From contig CAJUMV010000001.1 in the NCBI GenBank assembly GCA_910587715.1, forward strand, positions 102,729-166,728: a stretch of 64,000 nucleotides of DNA, given 5' to 3'. The DNA is from an uncultured Lachnospiraceae bacterium (GTDB taxonomy: Bacteria > Bacillota > Clostridia > Lachnospirales > Lachnospiraceae). Position 1 is the first letter of the stretch. Each line of letters starts with the position of its first letter. The translations under genes were made by a program, and so were the position numbers. A model generated the notes under the pieces. That model made no database searches, was not told the origin of the DNA, and was given only the letters and a program-made list of their open reading frames with translations. Shown piece by piece: positions 3,211-27,306 of this stretch.

Positions 3211-3239
3211 TTGCGCTTCCCCGCTGTTTATGCTATAAT
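3211..3239 (+). promoter_or_regulatory. SigA-type promoter TTGCGC-N17-TATAAT with TG-extended -10
   Basis: TTGCGC at 3211-3216, an exact 17-nt spacer, and TGcTATAAT ending at 3239. It sits 57 nt upstream of the first + strand gene of the glycan region. Confidence 0.5.
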
Positions 3240-3271
3240 GTTCGCGATGGCAATGAGCAGTGCGCAGACAG
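3240..3271 (+). promoter_or_regulatory. Conserved leader box, copy 1 (GTTCGCGATGGCAATGAGCAGTGCGCAGACAG)
   Basis: Near-identical to 27276-27306, with a 21-nt perfect core CGCGATGGCAATGAGCAGTGC. Both copies begin immediately after a TATAAT box. Confidence 0.5.
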
Positions 3272-3295: not shown

Positions 3296-4054
3296 ATGTT
3301 TTCATTTGACGATTACAGGGAAATGATTAAAATTATAAAGTCTACGGGCAGACAGTGCGGCTACGCGGAGGCGCTAAACAGAGATTCTTTTGTTATTATG
3401 CGCCATGATGTAGAGTACAGCGTGGAGCGGGCGTGGCAGCTTGCCAAAGTGGAGCAGAGCATGGACTTTATCTCTACGTTCTTTTTCCAGTGGACAAACA
3501 ATTCCTATAATATCCTTTCCCGAAAGAATATGGATATCATCAAGGACATGCATGAGAGAGGGCAGCGTATCGGGCTTCATTTTGCGTTGAACGGCATGAC
3601 GGATATGGAACAGATCAAGAAGCGCATTCGTATGGAAATTGATATTTTAAGCGAGATGTTCGGCTTCGCCATTACGGAATTTTCTGTGCACAGACCTTCC
3701 AAGGACGTGCTTCGGGAGAATATCAAGCTGGACGGTCTGCTCAATGCGTATCAGGATGATTTTTTCACCTTTGCAGATAAAATAACAGATGATACGAAAT
3801 TGAGCGTGAAATATATGTCGGATGCAAACCATGTGTGGCGTTACGGCTACCCGGATGAGGCGAATATTACAGGTTATGATAAGGTGCAGATTCTGACGCA
3901 TCCTTTTGCGTGGAGCAAGAAAGGGTATAATAATTTTGAAAATTATCGGGCGCTGATACAGGAGAAATATGAGGAGCTGGTGCAGTCCGTGGATAATGAA
4001 TGCAAGGATTTCGGGGAATATAAGGAATATTTTATGGGTAAGGACGTAAAATAG
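3296..4054 (+). CDS. Divergent polysaccharide deacetylase-like (CE4-superfamily-like) protein
   Basis: Start moved to the ATG at 3296, which has GGAGG 6 nt upstream. The MRHDVEYS motif and an alternating beta/alpha pattern resemble the RHDVD-type deacetylase-like proteins found next to AsnB-like genes in O-antigen loci. Confidence 0.4.
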   Translation: MFSFDDYREMIKIIKSTGRQCGYAEALNRDSFVIMRHDVEYSVERAWQLAKVEQSMDFISTFFFQWTNNSYNILSRKNMDIIKDMHERGQRIGLHFALNGMTDMEQIKKRIRMEIDILSEMFGFAITEFSVHRPSKDVLRENIKLDGLLNAYQDDFFTFADKITDDTKLSVKYMSDANHVWRYGYPDEANITGYDKVQILTHPFAWSKKGYNNFENYRALIQEKYEELVQSVDNECKDFGEYKEYFMGKDVK

Positions 4055-4064
4055 GGGAGTTTAT

Positions 4065-5972
4065 ATGTGCGGGATTTGCGGGTATATCAGAAGGCGGGAG
4101 GTCACGCCCGAACAGCTGAAAAAGATGAATGATACGATGTATCACAGGGGTCCTGACGACAGCGGGGAAGAGATCTATGAGATAGCCGGAGGCTACCTTG
4201 TGGGGCTTGCGCAGAGACGGCTTTCTATTCTGGACCTTTCGGCTCTGGGGCATCAGCCCATGCATTCGGCGGATGGCAGGGTTGTTGTGGTTTATAACGG
4301 GGAAATTTATAATTTCAGAGAATTACGGGAAGAATTGGCGGACTATCCCTTCCGGTCGGACTGCGATACGGAAGTTATCATAGCCGCCTATTTAAAATGG
4401 GGGCTTTCCTGTGTGAAGCGGTTTAACGGGATGTTTGCCATCGCGCTTTTTGACAGGGAGGAAGAGGCGGTTTATCTGATTCGTGACCGCATCGGCAAGA
4501 AACCGCTCTATTATTGGTATGAGCAGGAAGAGCTCGTGTTCGCGTCGGAGTTAAAGCCGATTATGGCATGTCCGGGTTTTCAGGCTAAGATAGACAAGGG
4601 CGTGCTCTCGCGCTATCTCTTCCAGCAGTACATCAATGCGCCGGAGAGCGTTTATGAGAACGTGTATAAGCTTGCGCCCGGTGCGGTTCTCAAGTTTCGG
4701 GGCGGGCAGATTAGCACGTGGAGCTACTGGAATGTGAGGGAAGCCTATGCGGAAGCGGTGAAAGAGCCCGTGAAGAGTTATGAAGAAGCCAAAGAGCAGT
4801 TGAAAGCGCTCTTACAGCGTGCCGTGTCGCTTCGCATGATTTCGGACGTGCCGCTGGGGACCTTTTTAAGCGGCGGTTATGACTCCTCGCTGGTGACGGC
4901 AATAGCGCAGGCACATTCCGCGGAGCCTGTCAAGACTTTCTCCATCGGCTTTCAGGAGGAAAGTTATAACGAAGCGCCCTATGCCAGAGCGGTGGCGGAT
5001 TATTTGGGAACTGCCCACACGGAGCTGACGATCAGTGAGTCGGACATGCTGCGGATGGTGGAGAGTATTCCGAAGTATTATGATGAGCCTTTCGCGGATA
5101 GTTCTCAGATTCCGACGATGCTGGTATGTCAGCTGGCACGAGAGCAGGTGACGGTGGCGCTTTCCGGCGACGGCGGGGACGAGTTCTACTGTGGCTACCA
5201 TATCTATGAGAAAGTGGCGCAGGCGCAGAAGCTGGACGCGCCGGGCGCTTTTGTACATGGTTTATGTGATATGCCGGGCATAAAACGGCTTGATTTGGAG
5301 AAGAAGCTGCCCTTTAAAGTGCGGGTGATTGCCGGAAACAGAGAGCGGGAGACGAAAACACAGTTTAGTGCGGGAAACTATCCTGAGATGGCGCGCGCTA
5401 TGGTGGGCGGGATGCCTTCCGGAAAACAGGCGCTGCCGGTACATTATCCGGTGGAGAGCAGATATCCGGTCAAAGACTGGCAGGTATGCCGGATGCTTCT
5501 GGATATGGACACCTACCTGCCGGGGGACATTCTCTGCAAGATGGACCGCGCGTCCATGAAGTATTCGCTGGAAGCGAGATGCCCGATTCTTGACCCGGAT
5601 GTGATGGACTTTTCTTATCGGATTCCCCACTCCTATAAATATGCGGCGGGGGACAAAAAGCATATTTTAAAGGAGATTGCTTACGACTATATGCCGAGAG
5701 AGCTGCTGGATCGTCCGAAGAAAGGGTTTGGCGTGCCGCTTGATAAATGGCTGAGGGGGGCACTCAGAGAACAACTGTTATTTTACGCAGGACATGACTT
5801 TATGAAGCGTCAAAATCTATTCGACGAATCGTATGTGTCAAAGCTGGTGAAGAGCTACCTTGAGAAAGGAGACAGGGGGCGGGGAACGGGAGAAAATTAT
5901 TCCGGACTGATTTGGGCATTCTTTGTTTTCCAACAGTGGTACGCAAATTTCCACGAGAATCGTAACGGGTGA
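4065..5972 (+). CDS. asnB: Asparagine synthase (glutamine-hydrolysing) family amidotransferase, paralog 1
   Basis: MCGICGY provides the N-terminal Cys nucleophile and FLSGGYDSS the PP-loop. The 635-aa ORF has a GGGGAG RBS. Confidence 0.85.
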   Translation: MCGICGYIRRREVTPEQLKKMNDTMYHRGPDDSGEEIYEIAGGYLVGLAQRRLSILDLSALGHQPMHSADGRVVVVYNGEIYNFRELREELADYPFRSDCDTEVIIAAYLKWGLSCVKRFNGMFAIALFDREEEAVYLIRDRIGKKPLYYWYEQEELVFASELKPIMACPGFQAKIDKGVLSRYLFQQYINAPESVYENVYKLAPGAVLKFRGGQISTWSYWNVREAYAEAVKEPVKSYEEAKEQLKALLQRAVSLRMISDVPLGTFLSGGYDSSLVTAIAQAHSAEPVKTFSIGFQEESYNEAPYARAVADYLGTAHTELTISESDMLRMVESIPKYYDEPFADSSQIPTMLVCQLAREQVTVALSGDGGDEFYCGYHIYEKVAQAQKLDAPGAFVHGLCDMPGIKRLDLEKKLPFKVRVIAGNRERETKTQFSAGNYPEMARAMVGGMPSGKQALPVHYPVESRYPVKDWQVCRMLLDMDTYLPGDILCKMDRASMKYSLEARCPILDPDVMDFSYRIPHSYKYAAGDKKHILKEIAYDYMPRELLDRPKKGFGVPLDKWLRGALREQLLFYAGHDFMKRQNLFDESYVSKLVKSYLEKGDRGRGTGENYSGLIWAFFVFQQWYANFHENRNG

Positions 5973-7325: not shown

Positions 7326-8468
7326 GTGGGAACAGGGACAGAGAACAAGGTAAATAGGGAAACGGGCGGCGGAGATTCTGCGGTCAGTGCGATACAGGCG
7401 GCGCTGCGAATTATGGTTTTTCTTGCGATATTCGTGGGTATCCTTCTGCCCGTATCTTATATGGTACGGACAAACGGCGACGTAAAGGACCGTTTTGCAG
7501 GCTTTTATGCGGAAAAGAAAGATTCGCTCGACGTTGTGATCATCGGTTCCAGCCCGGTCTTTCCTTACTATGCGGCGCCGAAGCTGTGGGGGGAGACGGG
7601 GATTGCCATGTACCCGCTTTCTACCAATGTACAGCGCCCTGCCGCCATGCGTTATCTGGCACAGGAGGCGGCGAAAAGCCAGTCGCCTGCGCTCTATATT
7701 TTCGAGATGCGCATGTTTACGATGGAAGAGGCGGGGCTGATGGAGAATATGGCATATACCCGGGGCGTAACGGATAATCTGCGCTATTCGCCTCAGCGAA
7801 TCCGCACGATACGAGGGTTGGTGCCGGAGGACGATGCGGAAGGGCGGCTAAGCTACTATTTTGATATTATGAAATATCACACGAACTGGAAAATGCTGGC
7901 GCTTCCCTCTGAGTGGGCGAACATGTTCTATCATCACAGCCATCCGCTGAAAGGCTATACTTTCCGGGACGAGGTGGGACCGCAGCCGCAGCCCGTCTGT
8001 GGCGGCGCAAAAGGCGTTTTGGCAATGCCAAAGGAGCAGGAAGCGTATTTACGGGAGCTGCTTGCTTATCTGCAGGAAAACAGGCAGGAGGCGTTGTTTA
8101 TCGCCTCTCCTTACGGGGAATCTCTGGAGGAACAACAGATGTTCAACTATATGGCGGATATTGTGGAAGAGAGCGGCTATGCCTTTTTGAATATGAACGA
8201 TTACTATGATGAGATTGGCATTGTTTTTGAGGAGGATTTCGCGGATTACGGCAGCCATACCAATGCAGTGGGGGCGGAAAAGTGTACGGATTTCCTGAAA
8301 AATTATCTGACTGCCCGCTACGCGCTCCCTGACCACCGTGGAGACGTTTCTTACGATTCGTGGGACAAAGCCTATGAGTTATGGAAAACAAGGCAGGATG
8401 AGGCTGCTAGGACGATTAGAGAGCGGATTGCGAACGGGGAGTATGCTGAAATCGCGGAAGAGGATTAG
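7326..8468 (+). CDS. Membrane-anchored SGNH/DltD/AlgJ-like protein (putative glycan O-acyl modification)
   Basis: GTG start with GAAGGAGG upstream and a single N-terminal TM. VVIIGSSPVF is a candidate Ser block. C-terminal DYGSHTNAVGA resembles the D-x-x-H(W/T) block of SGNH-like acyltransferases. Confidence 0.35.
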   Translation: MGTGTENKVNRETGGGDSAVSAIQAALRIMVFLAIFVGILLPVSYMVRTNGDVKDRFAGFYAEKKDSLDVVIIGSSPVFPYYAAPKLWGETGIAMYPLSTNVQRPAAMRYLAQEAAKSQSPALYIFEMRMFTMEEAGLMENMAYTRGVTDNLRYSPQRIRTIRGLVPEDDAEGRLSYYFDIMKYHTNWKMLALPSEWANMFYHHSHPLKGYTFRDEVGPQPQPVCGGAKGVLAMPKEQEAYLRELLAYLQENRQEALFIASPYGESLEEQQMFNYMADIVEESGYAFLNMNDYYDEIGIVFEEDFADYGSHTNAVGAEKCTDFLKNYLTARYALPDHRGDVSYDSWDKAYELWKTRQDEAARTIRERIANGEYAEIAEED

Positions 8469-8484
8469 AAAGGATAAATAACAC

Positions 8485-10437
8485 ATGTGTGGAATTGCGG
8501 GTTTTTGCAACTTTAGGGGAGACTGGCAGAAGAATATCGAGCGGATGTGCGATAAGATGAAGCATCGGGGACCGGATGCTTCGGGGGTGTGGGCTTCGGA
8601 GGACCACGGGGTAGTGCTGGGACACAGACGGCTTGCGATTGTGGATTTGTCGCCTGCGGGGGCGCAGCCCATGGTGTCCCGTGACGGCAGGTATGTGATT
8701 GCCTATAACGGGGAGATTTACAATCATACCTCCATTCGGAAAAAGCTGCTGGCGGAGAAACGGCTGCCTGCGTTCCGGGGGAGCTCCGACACAGAAACGC
8801 TTCTGGAAGCGATTGCCGCGTATGGCCTGAAAGATGCACTGAAAATGGCGAAAGGAATGTTTGTGATTGCGTTGTTTGATAGACAAGAACATGCGTTATT
8901 TCTTGCGCGGGACAGAGTCGGAGAAAAACCGTTATATTATGGAATATTAAAAGATGATATAAATAACGAGGGGAATGATGGGGGCTTTGTCTTTGCTTCC
9001 GAGCTTGGTTCGATTGCGTCGATGGATGGATTTACCAATTCGGTCAACGTAGATATTATAGGCGATTACATGCGTTATGGTTACATTTCGGCGCCATATA
9101 CCATATATCGCGGGATTTGGAAGCTGGAACCGGGAAAAATATTAAAGGTTAAAGCACCATTTGACAAACCGGAGCTTGAGAGCTATTGGTCGATGATGGA
9201 AACAGCTGTTATAGGACAAAAAAACCGCTTCCGGGGAAGTGAATCGGAAGCCGCTGAAGAGCTGGAGCGTCTTTTGCGGGAAGCCATCGCCGGACAGATG
9301 GTGGCGGACGTGCCCGTAGGCGCTTTTTTGTCCGCGGGGATTGACAGCAGTACGGTGGTGTCACTGATGCAGGAGCAGAGCGCGCAGAAGGTCAGAACGT
9401 TTACCGTGGGCATGTGGGAAGAACAGTATAACGAAGCGCCGACCGCGAAGGAGATTGCCGCGTATCTGGGAACGGAGCATACGGAGGTCTATATCACGGA
9501 AGAGGATGCGAAGAGCGTGATTCCAAAGCTGGCGGGGATGTTCGGGGAGCCGTTTGCGGATTCTTCCCAGATTCCGACTTATCTGGTGAGCCGGATGACG
9601 AGAGAGCATGTGACGGTATCTTTGAGCGGGGACGGCGGGGACGAGCTTTTCTGCGGATATAACACCTATTATTCTATCGAGCGCATCTGGAATAAGGTGA
9701 GGAAAATACCGGGTGTCCTGCGTCGTCCGGCAAGCGCTGTGCTGGGGCTTGCCGCATCCGGAAATGCTGCGCTGGCTACCCGGGCAAGGCTTCTTGGGGC
9801 GAAGAGCATAGAAGATATGTATCTGCGCTCGGAAATCGGGGAAGGGCTGGGATTGGTGAAACGCGGAAGGGCAGGCGGCGCTTCGGACTTCGGTGTCTGG
9901 GATGAGATACAGCCCCACAGGGCAGGTCAGACATGGATGAACACCTATCCAGCAGGGCTTCTGGAGGATGGGCAGCACAATCTGATGCTGATGGATTTAC
10001 TAATGTATCATCCCGACGATATTTTAAATAAGGTAGACAGGACTGCGATGGCGGTTTCCCTGGAGACGCGGGTGCCGATGTTAGATAAGGATGTGGTCGA
10101 ATTTGCATGGACGCTGCCACTGTCTTACCGGCAGGGCGGCGGGGTCAGCAAGAAGATTCTGCGGGATATTCTTTATCGTTATGTGCCCCGTGAACTGATG
10201 GAGCGTCCCAAAAAGGGGTTCTCGATTCCGCTTCATCGCTGGTTGAAGGAGAAGGAGCTGCGGGAGTGGGCGGAGAGCCTGCTGGCGCCATCCCTTTTGG
10301 AAGCGCAGGGATTGTTTGACGCGGCGGCTGTAAAGAAATTATGGGATGATTATATTATGAAAAGTGTCTGGAGACCGCAGATTTGGTACCTTCTGATGTT
10401 TCAGGAGTGGCAAAATGGAACAAAAATTAAATCTTGA
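8485..10437 (+). CDS. asnB: Asparagine synthase (glutamine-hydrolysing) family amidotransferase, paralog 2
   Basis: MCGIAGF provides the N-terminal Cys and FLSAGIDSS the PP-loop, in a 650-aa ORF. Confidence 0.85.
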   Translation: MCGIAGFCNFRGDWQKNIERMCDKMKHRGPDASGVWASEDHGVVLGHRRLAIVDLSPAGAQPMVSRDGRYVIAYNGEIYNHTSIRKKLLAEKRLPAFRGSSDTETLLEAIAAYGLKDALKMAKGMFVIALFDRQEHALFLARDRVGEKPLYYGILKDDINNEGNDGGFVFASELGSIASMDGFTNSVNVDIIGDYMRYGYISAPYTIYRGIWKLEPGKILKVKAPFDKPELESYWSMMETAVIGQKNRFRGSESEAAEELERLLREAIAGQMVADVPVGAFLSAGIDSSTVVSLMQEQSAQKVRTFTVGMWEEQYNEAPTAKEIAAYLGTEHTEVYITEEDAKSVIPKLAGMFGEPFADSSQIPTYLVSRMTREHVTVSLSGDGGDELFCGYNTYYSIERIWNKVRKIPGVLRRPASAVLGLAASGNAALATRARLLGAKSIEDMYLRSEIGEGLGLVKRGRAGGASDFGVWDEIQPHRAGQTWMNTYPAGLLEDGQHNLMLMDLLMYHPDDILNKVDRTAMAVSLETRVPMLDKDVVEFAWTLPLSYRQGGGVSKKILRDILYRYVPRELMERPKKGFSIPLHRWLKEKELREWAESLLAPSLLEAQGLFDAAAVKKLWDDYIMKSVWRPQIWYLLMFQEWQNGTKIKS

Positions 10438-15742: not shown

Positions 15743-17308
15743 ATGAAGGTTTGGGAAAAAGTTGAAAATTTCTTGAGCGGCAGACGGGCAGTCATTTTGG
15801 CGGCAGGGCTTTTGCTTTTGTCGTTTGTTCCCCTGCTTTGGCTGGGAAAATATAATGTGATGTGCATCGACGACTACGATTACGGCAGGCGGGTGCATGA
15901 CGTCTTTCTGGAGACGGGCTCTTTCGCGGCTTCCGTGCAGGAGGCGTGGCGGCAGAACATGGATTTTTATCAGGACTGGCAGGGAACTTATATATCCTGC
16001 TTCCTGATGGGCATGTGTCCTATGAATTTTAACTATCATATCGCGTGGGTGGTTCCGATTCTGACGATTGGCATGTTTGCCACCTCTTCCTTTGTGCTGG
16101 GACGGCATATTCTGGTTCGGTGGCTCGGCTGTGAAAAGGAGGGTGCATCCCTCTGTATGCTGCTCTTGCTGTTCGTGTTTTATCAGGTGATGGAAGCGCC
16201 TTTCGAGGGAATTTACTGGTATAACGGCTCTACCCACTATGTGCTGATGCAGTCCATATGGTTTTTTCTGCTGACGCTTATTTCGGGGAGTCTTTGGGCG
16301 GAGAAAAAAGCGCGGGCGTGTGTGTGCTGTGCGGCGGCAGCAGTCCTTTCTGTGATTGTGGGCGGTGGCAATCTGGTGACTGGTCTGCAGGCGGAGGTGC
16401 TGATGGTGTTTCTCGTCTGTTATGCTTTTTTTCAGAAAAAGGATAGAATAGCATATGTTATTGTTCCGCTTGTGACAGGAAGCGCCGGATTTCTGGTAAA
16501 TGTTCTTGCACCGGGCAACGGCAAACGGGGAAGCATCGATATGGATGAGGGATATTCCGCTGTGAAGGCGATCGCCTTGTCCTTTTACAATACGGCAGTG
16601 TTTGCAATCCGCTGGACGCCGGTATTTGTGGTGCTCTTGTGGCTTTTGCTTCTGCCAATTTTGTGGAAACGGATGAAAACATCCGGAAAAGACTTTTCCC
16701 ATCCTGTCCTCGTGACGGCGGGGGCGTACTGTGTGATTTCGGCTATGTTTACGCCGACTCTTTATGCGGTAGGTATGACGGGGCTTTCCCGGGTGGATAA
16801 TATCATTCAGATGACTTATTATCTGGCAGTGTTATTGGTCACGGCTTACTGGCTGGGATATTTTTCCCACAGGACAGAGCGGGTCGGCGCTGTGGCTGGA
16901 AGCAAGGCGGCGCAGGGCGGCGATTTCGGAAATGGCGCGGCTGCGGCGTTTGGCGTGTTTCTGGAAAGGGCGGGCGGTCGGATGACGGCGGTCTGTCTGA
17001 TTCTGCTTCTGGCAGTCTGGGTGCTTACGGCGGATAAGAACACTTACACGAGCATTTCTGCCCTGCGTTCCGTGGCAAAAGGGGAAGCGCAGACTTTTTA
17101 TCAGGAATCGATGGCGCGCTACGCGCTTTATACGGACGATAGCGTTGCAGAGGTGGAAGTGGCGCCCTACAGCGCAAGACCGGCGCTCTTTGATTTTACG
17201 GACTTGAGCGAGGATGAGGGCAACTGGATGAATCTGGCGGTTGCACGGTACTATCATAAAGACAATGTAAGAAACGCGAAAAGTACTTCTAAAGACGCCC
17301 TGCCATAG
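15743..17308 (+). CDS. Polytopic membrane protein, GT-C/GtrC-like (putative extracytoplasmic glycosyltransferase)
   Basis: 521 aa with about 12 TM helices. The first-loop acidic motif CIDDYDYG is similar to the D/E-x-D loop-1 motif of GT-C enzymes, and the C-terminal domain is soluble. Confidence 0.4.
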   Translation: MKVWEKVENFLSGRRAVILAAGLLLLSFVPLLWLGKYNVMCIDDYDYGRRVHDVFLETGSFAASVQEAWRQNMDFYQDWQGTYISCFLMGMCPMNFNYHIAWVVPILTIGMFATSSFVLGRHILVRWLGCEKEGASLCMLLLLFVFYQVMEAPFEGIYWYNGSTHYVLMQSIWFFLLTLISGSLWAEKKARACVCCAAAAVLSVIVGGGNLVTGLQAEVLMVFLVCYAFFQKKDRIAYVIVPLVTGSAGFLVNVLAPGNGKRGSIDMDEGYSAVKAIALSFYNTAVFAIRWTPVFVVLLWLLLLPILWKRMKTSGKDFSHPVLVTAGAYCVISAMFTPTLYAVGMTGLSRVDNIIQMTYYLAVLLVTAYWLGYFSHRTERVGAVAGSKAAQGGDFGNGAAAAFGVFLERAGGRMTAVCLILLLAVWVLTADKNTYTSISALRSVAKGEAQTFYQESMARYALYTDDSVAEVEVAPYSARPALFDFTDLSEDEGNWMNLAVARYYHKDNVRNAKSTSKDALP

Positions 17309-17349
17309 GACAGAGGCACAAAGTCAGCAAAGCTGACTTGGAAGTACTA
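17281..17349 (+). repeat. Intercistronic structured repeat, copy A
   Basis: Outer stem AGTACTTC (17282-17289) pairs with GAAGTACT (17341-17348). The inner hairpin is GCC-CTG[CCATAGGA]CAG-a-GGC (17297-17317), with a second hairpin GTCAGC-aaa-GCTGAC. The element overlaps the last codons and the TAG stop of the upstream ORF. Confidence 0.6.
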
Positions 17350-17360
17350 TGTTTCGCGTG

Positions 17361-17389
17361 AGAGAATGCCCAAAGAACAGGCATTCTCT
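17361..17389 (+). other. 10-bp stem hairpin without U-tract
   Basis: AGAGAATGCC (17361-17370) pairs with GGCATTCTCT (17380-17389) around a 9-nt loop. GAGTTGG follows, so it is not a canonical intrinsic terminator. Confidence 0.4.
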
Positions 17390-17412
17390 GAGTTGGTTGA
17401 GAGGAAAATGCG

Positions 17413-18174
17413 ATGAATCAAGCTGCGGAAAGAAAATTAAAGCTCCCGAATGTGACGCTGGCGGCGATGACCAGTGTGAACGTGTATGAGACAATTCGTG
17501 CGCTGGAATACAGTATGCGGGGAATCGACTTTGGCGATGTGGTGCTGATTACCCACAGAAAACCGCTCTCCCTGCCAAAAAGCATTCGATTTTCCTATAC
17601 CTCAAAACTGGATGATATCGATAAATTTAATTATAAAATGGTGTACGAATTGGGAGAGCACATCAAAACGGAGTATGCGCTGATCGTACATGCGGACGGT
17701 TTCGTAGTGCATCCCGAGAGTTGGCAGGATGCGTTTCTGGATTATGATTATATCGGTTCCCCCTGGCCGCTGCCGCAGAATGATTACTCTTACCGGGACG
17801 CCAAGGGCGAGATTGTCCGGGTGGGAAACAGTGTGTCGATCCGCAGCAAACGGCTTATGGATTACCCCGCGCGGGCAGGGCTTAAGTGGGAAAAGATTGA
17901 GGAAGAGGATGAGTATAACGAGGATATTTTTCTCTGCTGCAAATACCGTAATGTGCTCGAGGACGCGGGGATGCGCTTTGCACCCATTGAGGTAGCGAAG
18001 TATTTCGGGCACGAGCACATGATTCCCGAGATCATGGATGTGGAGAAGCCTTTTCTTTTTCATAAGTGGCGCGGCAGAAACGCGCAGTACCCGCAGTTTA
18101 AGAATCCGTGGAAGGTCAGATGGCAGAGGTGTAAGGATTTGGTTAGACCATTCCTATTCTGGAGAAAAAAGTGA
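17413..18174 (+). CDS. DUF5672-like putative glycosyltransferase
   Basis: LIVHADGFVVHPESWQDAFLDYDYIGSPWP matches my recollection of the DUF5672 core (D-G-F...W...FL-x-YDYIGAPW). Confidence 0.55.
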   Translation: MNQAAERKLKLPNVTLAAMTSVNVYETIRALEYSMRGIDFGDVVLITHRKPLSLPKSIRFSYTSKLDDIDKFNYKMVYELGEHIKTEYALIVHADGFVVHPESWQDAFLDYDYIGSPWPLPQNDYSYRDAKGEIVRVGNSVSIRSKRLMDYPARAGLKWEKIEEEDEYNEDIFLCCKYRNVLEDAGMRFAPIEVAKYFGHEHMIPEIMDVEKPFLFHKWRGRNAQYPQFKNPWKVRWQRCKDLVRPFLFWRKK

Positions 18175-18236
18175 GAAGTGCTTCTAAAGACGTCCCGCCA
18201 TAGGACGGAGACGCCAAGAAGCACTAAGTCTCACTT
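18170..18236 (+). repeat. Intercistronic structured repeat, copy B
   Basis: Outer stem AGTGCTTC (18177-18184) pairs with GAAGCACT (18218-18225) and is extended by AGTGAGA/TCTCACT. The inner hairpin is GTC-CCG[CCATAGGA]CGG-a-GAC (18192-18212). The loop is identical to copy A and the stems differ by compensatory changes. Confidence 0.6.
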
Positions 18237-18255
18237 GGAAAGGAAAAAATAACAC

Positions 18256-19197
18256 ATGATATATGACTGCGTCCCTTTTTTTAATGAACTGGATATTTTG
18301 AAGCTCAGAATGCAGATTATGGCGCCTTATGTGGATTTTTTTGTGATTGAGGAGGCTTCGGTCACGTTTTCGGGGGAGCCGAAGCGGATGATTTTTGCGG
18401 AAAACAGGCAGCTTTTTGCGGAGTTTGAGGAGAAGATACGCTATGTGGCGGTGGAAAACTCGCCCATGGAGGGGGTTACCACCCATGAGCGGGATAAATT
18501 CCAGAAGAATCAGCTGATCCGGGGGCTTTTCGACTGTAAGCCGGAGGATATCATTATTTTCAGTGATGTGGACGAAATCCCGAATCCGGAGACGCTGGTA
18601 CGTCTGCTCGAAGGGTTTGAGTCCGGGAAAGTGTATCATCTGGCGCAGCGGATGTTTTACTGCTTTTTAAATATGGAAGAGATATCGGGAAATCTTTTGT
18701 CTATCACGGGGGAATTTCCAGGCGTGGCGAGAAGACAGTGGCTCGGCACGAAGGTTTGCAGCTTTTCGGAGCTGCCCAAGGAAGGCATTGTATATTTGCG
18801 GGAGGTGCCGCCGGAAGACAGGCGCAGCGTGCGCATTGCGGACGGGGGCTGGCATTTCGGCTATATGGGCGGCGACGGCGAGCGGGATGTGGCGAAGCGC
18901 ATCGGCGTGAAGGTGCAGGCGGCGGCACATTCGGAATACAATACCAAACGTTATTTAAATGAGGCGGTGGACAGGCTGCTCTGCGGCGAGGATATTTTCG
19001 ACAGAGACGCGAAGTTTGTGCGGGTGGAGATTGACGAGAGCTTTCCGGCGTATCTGCGGGAGCACAAGGAGGAGTACGATTTTCTGACTGCTCCCAAAAT
19101 CAGTCCGGCGGGAATTTTCTGTAAGAGGACGAAGCTGGCGGGAAAGCAGTTTTTGCGCAGGATACACGGCGCGGCGACGCGGATTTTGCACAGATAA
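18256..19197 (+). CDS. Glycosyltransferase family 17-like (bacterial beta-1,4-GlcNAc-transferase III homolog)
   Basis: N-terminal MIYDCVPFFNELDILKLRM...FFVIEEASVTFSGEPK and FSDVDEIP are characteristic of bacterial GT17 homologs. Confidence 0.7.
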   Translation: MIYDCVPFFNELDILKLRMQIMAPYVDFFVIEEASVTFSGEPKRMIFAENRQLFAEFEEKIRYVAVENSPMEGVTTHERDKFQKNQLIRGLFDCKPEDIIIFSDVDEIPNPETLVRLLEGFESGKVYHLAQRMFYCFLNMEEISGNLLSITGEFPGVARRQWLGTKVCSFSELPKEGIVYLREVPPEDRRSVRIADGGWHFGYMGGDGERDVAKRIGVKVQAAAHSEYNTKRYLNEAVDRLLCGEDIFDRDAKFVRVEIDESFPAYLREHKEEYDFLTAPKISPAGIFCKRTKLAGKQFLRRIHGAATRILHR

Positions 19198-27250: not shown

Positions 27251-27275
27251 TATGAAAGGAAAATGATGGTATAAT
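27247..27275 (+). promoter_or_regulatory. SigA-type promoter TTGATA-N17-TATAAT with TG-extended -10
   Basis: TTGATA at 27247-27252 overlaps the stop of the upstream gene. An exact 17-nt spacer precedes TGgTATAAT, which ends at 27275. Confidence 0.55.
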
Positions 27276-27306
27276 GTCCGCGATGGCAATGAGCAGTGCC
27301 AGACGG
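27276..27306 (+). promoter_or_regulatory. Conserved leader box, copy 2 (GTCCGCGATGGCAATGAGCAGTGCCAGACGG)
   Basis: Same sequence as 3240-3271 apart from 1 mismatch, 1 indel and one distal change. It occupies the same position relative to the -10 box. Confidence 0.5.

Follow-up and report, generated by a model that had tools for sequence, protein, structure and literature searches.

The 64-kb stretch of DNA analyzed here (the window) comes from an uncultured Lachnospiraceae bacterium and carries, on its plus strand, a polysaccharide operon in which two consecutive gene junctions are occupied by copies of a structured repeat. Copy A lies between a DUF6056/GT_STM0557_N gene and a DUF5672 gene, and copy B between the DUF5672 gene and a GT17 gene. 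A first description made from the letters alone (the sequence-only reading) considered these copies to be a candidate cis-acting RNA element selected for its structure. The analysis reported below indicates that they belong to a large, apparently undescribed family of palindromic repeats, and that this family is more likely to be selfish DNA resembling repetitive extragenic palindromes (REPs) than a dedicated regulatory RNA. Positions of the copies, genes and modules in the window are given on the plus strand.

The degenerate 32-nt core of the repeat, CTTCTAAAGACGYCCYGCCATAGGACRGAGRC, has exactly two matches in the window (17286-17317 and 18181-18212, plus strand), with 0 expected in 100 shuffles of the window. 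A repeat finder also paired the two sites (52 nt, 81% identity), which are located 895 nt apart on the same strand. Both copies fold into a composite hairpin, in which an outer stem (P1) and a second stem (P2) enclose an inner hairpin (P3). P2 pairs AGTACTTC with GAAGTACT in copy A and AGTGCTTC with GAAGCACT in copy B. P3 reads GCCCTG..CAG-A-GGC in copy A and GTCCCG..CGG-A-GAC in copy B; the loop CCATAGGA and a bulged A are common to the two. Inspection of the sequence agreed with the sequence-only reading on the position of the copies and their common core, on the P2 and P3 stems, on three pair-preserving double changes between the stems of the two copies, on the extra GTCAGC hairpin of copy A, and on the TAG stop codon of the upstream open reading frame (ORF) within the loop of this copy. 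The outermost stem had been assigned to copy B alone, but copy A also has a P1 (Table 1).

The predicted folding energy was -29.3 kcal/mol for copy A (z -4.4 against shuffles) and -34.1 kcal/mol for copy B (z -6.6). A 126-nt fold of copy A that includes P1 and the hairpin following the copy reached -53 kcal/mol (z -6.7). The minus strand folded at least as well, with -30.3 kcal/mol for copy A and -39.8 kcal/mol for copy B. A covariance model built from 33 simple copies of the family scored copy A at 57.5 bits (E 4.7e-11) and copy B at 73.1 bits (E 1.3e-14). When it was run over the window with filters off, only these two copies were recovered, the next matches not exceeding 12.6 bits. No Rfam 15 family matched the window at the gathering threshold, and in the region 17230-18280, with E values up to 10, only a chance match to GcvB was obtained (11.7 bits, opposite strand).

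Strong GC-containing hairpins at gene ends might act as transcription terminators or attenuators inside the operon, as has been proposed for bacterial interspersed mosaic elements (BIMEs) and SPRITE repeats (PMC3049150). This is very unlikely here. The sequence-only reading had already set intrinsic termination aside for want of a U-tract; indeed, there is no T-run after the composite hairpin of either window copy or after the 10-bp hairpin that follows copy A, and a terminator scan called no terminator-like site at either copy. Moreover, most copies of the family are located between tightly spaced co-directional genes, at up to four junctions in a row, where efficient termination would silence the downstream genes.

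The family was delimited by an exact-motif scan (TCTAAAGAC-N5-GCCATAGGAC) of one genome per bacterial species. The motif was present in at least 115 genome blocks and, among the matches listed, nearly all were from Lachnospiraceae of the rodent gut (mouse or vole). The cultured strains COE1, 1xD42-87 and B79_4_CH_BP are among the carriers. At least 18 blocks were found in the genome MGBC123502, and at least 12 in each of MGBC158728 and SC1186_S39_bin.15. Over the 776 kb of fetched loci, the covariance model detected 140 copies, of which 38 lack the exact motif; the search for further copies suggested by the sequence-only reading thus yielded hundreds of copies in other genomes. Among 2.9 million viral contigs scanned, only one carried a hairpin resembling that which follows copy A (L124:9632-9659). 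Literature searches found no description of this repeat family. In contigs of the window species both copies are unchanged. Five of the eight short-read (Logan) contigs of this species (L119-L123) end at ...GCCATAGGA inside copy B (window 18200-18205), because repeated DNA breaks short-read assembly.

The full unit consists of three modules, M1, then M2, then sometimes M3. M1 is the composite hairpin, with the arms of P1 and P2 enclosing a swappable P3. Its P1 outer stem is formed by GYGARAAG and its complement, and its internal loop is conserved (TAAAGA opposite CCAA). P3 of the kind found in copies A and B is CGTCCCG[CCATAGGA]CGGGACG, another large subfamily has a different inner hairpin (GCTCAGCAGC-AAAG-GCTGCTTCGC), and some copies have none. 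Extra hairpins may be inserted in M1, among them AAGTCAGC..GCTGACTT, as in copy A, and AGGAGTTGC..GCAACTCC. The 8-nt loop and bulged A, described as invariant by the sequence-only reading, are so between copies A and B but not across the family; they are features at the subfamily level, and other members have a different inner hairpin or no bulge. M2 (GGAGAATGCC-N8-GGCATTCTCC) is the module with the highest sequence conservation and follows M1 in 80 of the 123 motif-bearing copies. The hairpin after copy A is indeed the 10-bp structure that had been proposed; it is, however, no accessory but the regular M2, orthologous with few changes to that of the related loci L058 and L075, and absent from copy B. 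M3, which is optional, is a hairpin (GCAYTGATTTGAGATTCCGC-aga-GCGGAATCATGGnGGTTAG) ending in a Shine-Dalgarno-like GGAGG, which in several loci stands 5-10 nt ahead of the start codon of the next gene. Copy A is therefore composed of M1 with an inserted hairpin and M2, and copy B of M1 alone followed by a short tail with GGAAAGGA.

Table 1. Features of the two window copies and of the genes around them.
Feature	Position	Strand	Details or basis
Solo 5' arm GTAAGAA, a relic of an earlier M1 copy	17267-17273	+	within the last codons of the upstream gene
Copy A, module M1, composite hairpin	17274-17359	+	sequence, fold, covariance model
Copy A P1	17274-17281/17352-17359	+	
Copy A P2	17282-17289/17341-17348	+	
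Copy A internal loop			TAAAGAC / CTTG
Copy A P3	17297-17302/17311-17317	+	loop CCATAGGA 17303-17310, bulged A17314
Copy A inserted hairpin AAGTCAGC-AAA-GCTGACTT	17321-17339	+	
TAG stop of DUF6056/GT_STM0557_N gene, in P3 loop of copy A	17306-17308	+	ORF list, Pfam
Copy A, module M2 AGAGAATGCC-CAAAGAACA-GGCATTCTCT, 10-bp hairpin	17361-17389	+	sole M2 match in the window
Copy B, module M1 alone; no inserted hairpin, no M2	18169-18236	+	sequence, fold, covariance model
Copy B P1	18169-18176/18229-18236	+	
Copy B P2	18177-18184/18218-18225	+	
Copy B P3	18191-18197/18206-18213	+	loop CCATAGGA, bulged A18209
TGA stop of DUF5672 gene, in GTGA of copy B P1 5' arm	18172-18174	+	ORF list
3' tail GGAAAGGAAAAAATAACAC with Shine-Dalgarno-like GGAAAGGA	18237-18255	+	upstream of GT17 start codon 18256
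DUF6056/GT_STM0557_N gene, upstream of copy A	15743-17308	+	ORF list, Pfam
DUF5672 gene between the two copies	17413-18174	+	Pfam PF18922; context, not part of the element
GT17 gene, downstream of copy B	18256-19197	+	

Head-to-tail M1-M2-M3 arrays with a period of 137 nt were found in L005 and L010, and a similar pair 147 nt apart in L077, each array keeping a single strand orientation. Remnants consisting of P1 only or M2 only also occur. Two further arrangements were seen: downstream of the element at 1383-1500 in L020 (reverse strand), four tandem units of ~33 nt combine the 3' half of M2 with GTAAATGAAGGG, and at L062:3400-3500 two members of different subfamilies stand head-to-head on opposite strands. 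Several ideas about M1 were discarded. On inspection, the internal loop is not a K-turn, as no tandem G·A pairs adjoin the stem. A mini-ORF GTG...TAG through M1 (~10 amino acids) lacks its start codon in the GCG subfamilies. Finally, a likeness of the AGTGCT/AGCACT arms to the CIRCE operator was rejected, the arm order being inverted and the arms varying among copies.

Two similar copies 895 nt apart on one strand could be the product of a recent local duplication of a single intergenic segment, an alternative left open by the sequence-only reading. We consider its probability negligible. Copies A and B are identical at 54 of 65 positions (~83%), whereas each is 93-100% identical to copies in other genomes: the nearest relatives of copy A share 68 of 73 positions with it (93%), carry the same inserted hairpin and lie at unrelated loci of other genomes, and copy B is identical to its L076 orthologue at all 68 aligned positions. 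Moreover, the two copies differ in their modules (inserted hairpin and M2), and in related species each junction has been filled independently of the other. The two copies occupy their sites independently and come from different subfamilies. The apparently compensatory differences between them are differences between subfamilies, because each copy is closer to copies in other genomes.

The pairing of the stems was then considered over the whole family. In 136 distinct copies, standard pairs occupied 95.9% of the cells, versus 33-52% with the partners slid, and changes on both sides were seen in 32 of 35 pairs; no shuffle reached any of the observed values, and the seed alignment gave the same result. 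Therefore, the hairpin is maintained, and the covariation in homologues on which the sequence-only reading depended is strong. A transcript under RNA-level selection should tolerate G:U but not A:C. The non-Watson-Crick cells contained 74 G:T or T:G and 75 A:C or C:A mismatches, and G:U intermediates are rare. Thus, nothing marks an RNA strand. This even split fits the outcome of unselected mutational decay, and a constraint on DNA complementarity fits it too.

Comparison of orthologous copies gave a similar picture. Three moderately diverged pairs displayed 11 single uncompensated changes and no double change. Between L058 and L075, M1 differs by 6 double and no single changes while M2 and the tail are almost unchanged, which is best explained by replacement of M1 by a copy of another subfamily. 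Between L022 and L041 the flanks are 98-99.5% identical, yet an entire inserted module separates the two elements. Covariation alone is not decisive, because a mobile palindrome yields the same signal; this family is a cautionary case in which strong covariation was not enough on its own to identify a functional RNA.

The two window junctions were compared with those of close relatives. At junction A, the element is present in the window, L058 and L075; in L076 only the 5' arm is left, and the reading frame continues to an ATGA overlap. At junction B, the window and L076 carry the element, and L058 retains only GTGAGAA and the tail. L075 has no element there; its two genes share an ATGA overlap, as against a spacing of 81 nt in the window. 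The tail of copy B is found in the genomes where this junction holds an element or its relic (window, L076, L058), and L075 lacks it. Upstream of copy A, the solo arm GTAAGAA corresponds to the P1 5' arm of the orthologous L058 element (ATGTAAGAAG), its partner 3' arm being gone; one contig of the same species (L121) has GTGAGAA at this position. The window junction thus records turnover, with a solo arm followed by a complete M1 of another subfamily, and the pattern [GTGARAA][NNGCGAAAAG...] is seen in many family members. It was also considered whether a 5' P1 arm could be a pre-existing target that templates the 3' arm; this was rejected in view of a relic 3' arm in L093 and of the few forms taken by 5' arms.

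A search based on flanks revealed eight further filled/empty pairs, one of which is the groES-groEL spacer. In two cases the window is empty and a relative filled: 8468/8485 (window region 8453-8497) compared with L071 (MGBC123502), and 4054/4065 (window region 4044-4096) compared with L103 (MGBC108897). Filled and empty sites differ by M1+M2, with or without the tail; M1 by itself is bounded by inverted arms, but the two ends of this larger unit do not form inverted repeats. In every case the inserted unit follows the stop codon of the upstream gene and precedes the ribosome-binding site of the downstream one. Altogether, units have been gained and lost, and they also occur truncated, nested or in head-to-tail arrays; exchange between sites is seen as well.

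Two direct copies around one gene also raise the question of attC-like recombination sites, which would bracket the DUF5672 gene for excision or exchange in the polysaccharide locus. Integron attC sites conserve structure above sequence, have conserved unpaired or extrahelical bases, keep a fixed orientation and, in many cases, adjoin the stop codon of the preceding ORF. The family shares this conservation of structure rather than stem sequence, the conserved unpaired bases and the fixed orientation by the stop codon. However, the DUF5672 gene is present in relatives irrespective of the element at either junction, including those with one filled junction only (L058, L075, L076). RYYYAAC/GTTRRRY core sites (R/L boxes) are absent from the sequence, there is no cassette array, no integrase is found among the recurrent neighbors, and the copies are scattered through ordinary housekeeping operons. 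The distribution of the family already largely refutes this explanation, which we regard as extremely improbable.

Some other repeats were observed in the window. The sequence GAAAGGATAAATAACAC-ATG before the gene at 8485 (8468-8484, plus strand) closely resembles the tail of copy B, GAAAGGAAAAAATAACAC-ATG (18238-18255), with ~0.02 such matches expected by chance. The tail GAAAGGAnAAATAACAC was nevertheless rejected as a module of the family, its recurrence being confined to this gene cluster. A 123-nt direct repeat of 72% identity (5085-5207 and 9547-9669, plus strand) lies inside the ORFs 4065-5972 and 8485-10437, which are probably paralogous judging from their sequences, both starting with ATGTG[T/C]GG[A/G]ATT... 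A near-identical repeat of ~40 nt with a TATAAT box, ATG[C/G]TATAATGT[T/C]CGCGATGGCAATGAGCAGTGC..CAGAC, is found at 3227-3270 and 27263-27305 (plus strand), in each case just upstream of a block of plus-strand genes (3260.. and 27354..). Two operons of the polysaccharide locus may share it as a promoter or leader.

The placement of the family relative to genes is strongly biased. Where flanking genes are co-directional, they share the strand of the element in 75 cases, against 2 with the opposite orientation. By our estimate, this ratio is too skewed for a by-product of the leading-strand gene bias (binomial P ~4e-4 even with 15% of genes on the lagging strand). In 93 of 123 copies (76%), the stop of a long ORF on the same strand falls inside the element or at most 15 nt ahead of P1. 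For these 93 copies, the stop codon was a TAG 4 nt before P1 (18 copies), a TGA inside P1 (15), a TAG in the P3 loop (14) or a TAA in the internal loop (4), among other positions, and the element supplies the last codons and stop of about a third of the sampled upstream genes (33/93). In the forward direction, every frame of the canonical M1-M2-M3 consensus meets a stop within the first 37 nt; in the reverse direction, two frames run for 75-82 nt before their first stop. Some copies also provide the Shine-Dalgarno sequence of the downstream gene. In one operon of MGBC123502 (L005:4214-7699), five co-oriented elements occupy four successive junctions, one of them with a tandem pair. A search for solo M2 next to genes gave matches on both strands, M2 being palindromic.

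The copies are scattered in ordinary operons, such as those of groES-groEL, ABC transporters and two-component systems. When 750 ORFs from 115 loci were clustered, the ten largest recurrent clusters all corresponded, by Pfam, to ordinary and functionally unrelated genes; recurrent neighbors include ABC transporters, histidine kinases, chemoreceptors, RelA/SpoT and Rnf.

Strict co-orientation and contact with stop codons do point to consequences at the level of transcripts or translation. They would be expected of a dedicated cis-acting RNA selected at each locus, whether an intercistronic processing, stability or translation-control module or a protein-binding site, as would the very stable folds and the strong stem covariation around conserved unpaired bases. 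Some orthologous copies are moreover identical despite 6-10% divergence of their flanks, and REP hairpins near stop codons have been reported to regulate translation (PMC12306157). However, selection of the structure as cis-RNA, as put forward by the sequence-only reading, was not established. G:T mismatches are no more frequent than A:C, the minus strand folds equally well or better, and the neighboring genes share no function. The same junctions are free of the element in close relatives, down to a plain ATGA overlap, and truncated, nested and arrayed copies are common, copy B itself being without M2. Orthologues drift without compensation or are swapped wholesale, and no Rfam match was obtained even at relaxed E values. 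On balance, a dedicated cis-RNA seems unlikely. Of the three possibilities named by that reading, the evidence favors the third, a miniature mobile repeat.

Among known systems, the family works most like REPINs. It shares with REPINs and with the REPs of BIMEs a high copy number, a non-coding and extragenic nature, and a long hairpin made of two inverted arms and a spacer. In M1, a spacer of ~33 nt separates two inverted arms (P1+P2, 16 nt) with 96% pairing, an inverted doublet in the REP/REPIN sense. Proximity of many copies to stop codons is another shared trait. In REPINs, changes across the hairpin are often compensatory, excision leaves asymmetric footprints with part of one arm, and copies insert into or beside existing ones and form tandem arrays (PMC3116915); the relic 5' arms of the present family, and its one relic 3' arm, recall these footprints.

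There are also clear differences. The 5' consensus of the family is (T)AG-N-GYGARAAG, and no GTAG head is present at the foot of the hairpin on either strand. REPINs are mobilized by REP-associated tyrosine transposases (RAYTs), whereas no RAYT was found beside family copies (8-kb blocks around motif matches). The host is a Firmicute family while REPIN hosts are Proteobacteria. Arrays run head-to-tail on one strand with a period of 137-147 nt, unlike the alternating REPs of BIMEs. A conserved M2 and an optional Shine-Dalgarno-like tail travel with the main hairpin, and co-orientation with the upstream gene is near-absolute. In Escherichia coli, ribosome stalling and down-regulated translation have been reported where a REP lies no more than 15 nt from a stop codon, and ~11% of predicted REPs are so placed (PMC12306157), compared with the 76% of family copies that touch a stop codon.

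The BOX elements of Streptococcus pneumoniae (boxA-boxB(n)-boxC) resemble the family in their Firmicute host, in modules of variable number and in being highly folded; they are transcribed as 5' or 3' extensions of operons, and their mobilizing enzyme is uncertain (PMC3049150). They have no sequence similarity to the family, and they possess terminal inverted repeats and target-site duplications, whereas no duplication is seen here. Pneumococcal BOX, RUP and SPRITE repeats are over-represented between convergent genes (PMC3049150); the family is mainly found between co-directional genes (75/123 copies). ERIC/IRU and Correia (NEMIS) elements are likewise imperfect palindromes of ~100-150 nt that are co-transcribed with operons, with orientation-dependent effects on mRNA cleavage and stability (PMC3049150). 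They occur in both orientations, in contrast to the almost fixed orientation of the family, in which the outer arms covary rather than being conserved. Terminal inverted repeats of 26 bp, together with a TA duplication, characterize Correia elements. The family also departs from miniature inverted-repeat transposable elements (MITEs) in having no consistent target-site duplication. With regard to terminal inverted repeats the picture is mixed, as inverted arms bound M1 by itself but not the M1+M2 unit, with or without its tail, that is inserted.

Thus, copies A and B are probably non-autonomous, modular palindromic repeats of the REPIN/BIME, BOX and ERIC kind, in a clade of rodent-gut Lachnospiraceae. 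High copy number, modularity, maintained hairpins, presence/absence polymorphism, module turnover, fixed orientation and contact with stop codons are all observed in this family. Such units would spread via a folded single-strand intermediate handled by a trans-acting enzyme which, by analogy only, would probably be a hairpin-recognizing single-strand transposase of the IS200/RAYT kind. The hairpin could be kept by this copying on a folded single strand together with replacement of whole hairpins, and RNA selection at each locus would then not be required. Copies in a harmless orientation, between a stop codon and a ribosome-binding site, would be the only ones to survive. RNA-level effects of the element are plausible. 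A transcribed hairpin within 15 nt of a stop codon would probably slow terminating ribosomes, by analogy with REPs, and hairpins in the operon mRNA would probably uncouple translation of neighboring cistrons and, as has been reported for REPs, shield the RNA upstream of them against decay from the 3' end. These host effects would be side effects and not the reason why the element exists.

Several observations weigh against this explanation. Neither a transposase nor a RAYT is among the recurrent neighbors of the copies in the 8-kb blocks, and no related autonomous insertion sequence was seen in 0.9 Mb of loci. Eight or more filled/empty comparisons gave no target motif and no consistent target-site duplication, at most an ambiguous 2-nt AG in one case, so that mobility is deduced from presence and absence and was not seen as an event. 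The 75:2 bias and the stop contact are stronger than reported for REP or BOX, and would also be expected from a true RNA-level function. In three orthologous pairs the elements are identical while the flanks agree at just 90-94% of positions, which could reflect recent conversion but also purifying selection or constraint. Finally, the loci were fetched by motif from one subfamily, and the conservation of the loops is therefore partly by construction.

Another account of the same data is a self-spreading cassette of stop codon, hairpin and Shine-Dalgarno sequence, adapted to or domesticated for the junctions of co-transcribed genes, which would set the relative expression of adjacent cistrons in many Lachnospiraceae operons and move in a strand-specific or transcript-linked manner without a RAYT. 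We hold it to be rather improbable. If true, it would involve a mechanism unlike known REPIN and MITE transposition, and would account for co-orientation, replacement of M1 at fixed sites and relic arms.

The finding concerns dominant gut bacteria, the Lachnospiraceae, whose non-coding DNA is almost unexplored. In these genomes a high-copy hairpin repeat breaks short-read assemblies, and the last codons and stops that it supplies matter for gene calls. It puts up to ~140 nt of very stable structure between genes that are otherwise translationally coupled. The junctions with and without the element form a natural set for studying how intercistronic hairpins shape operon expression in Firmicutes. 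If the mobilizing enzyme were found, REPIN-like biology would reach a new phylum.

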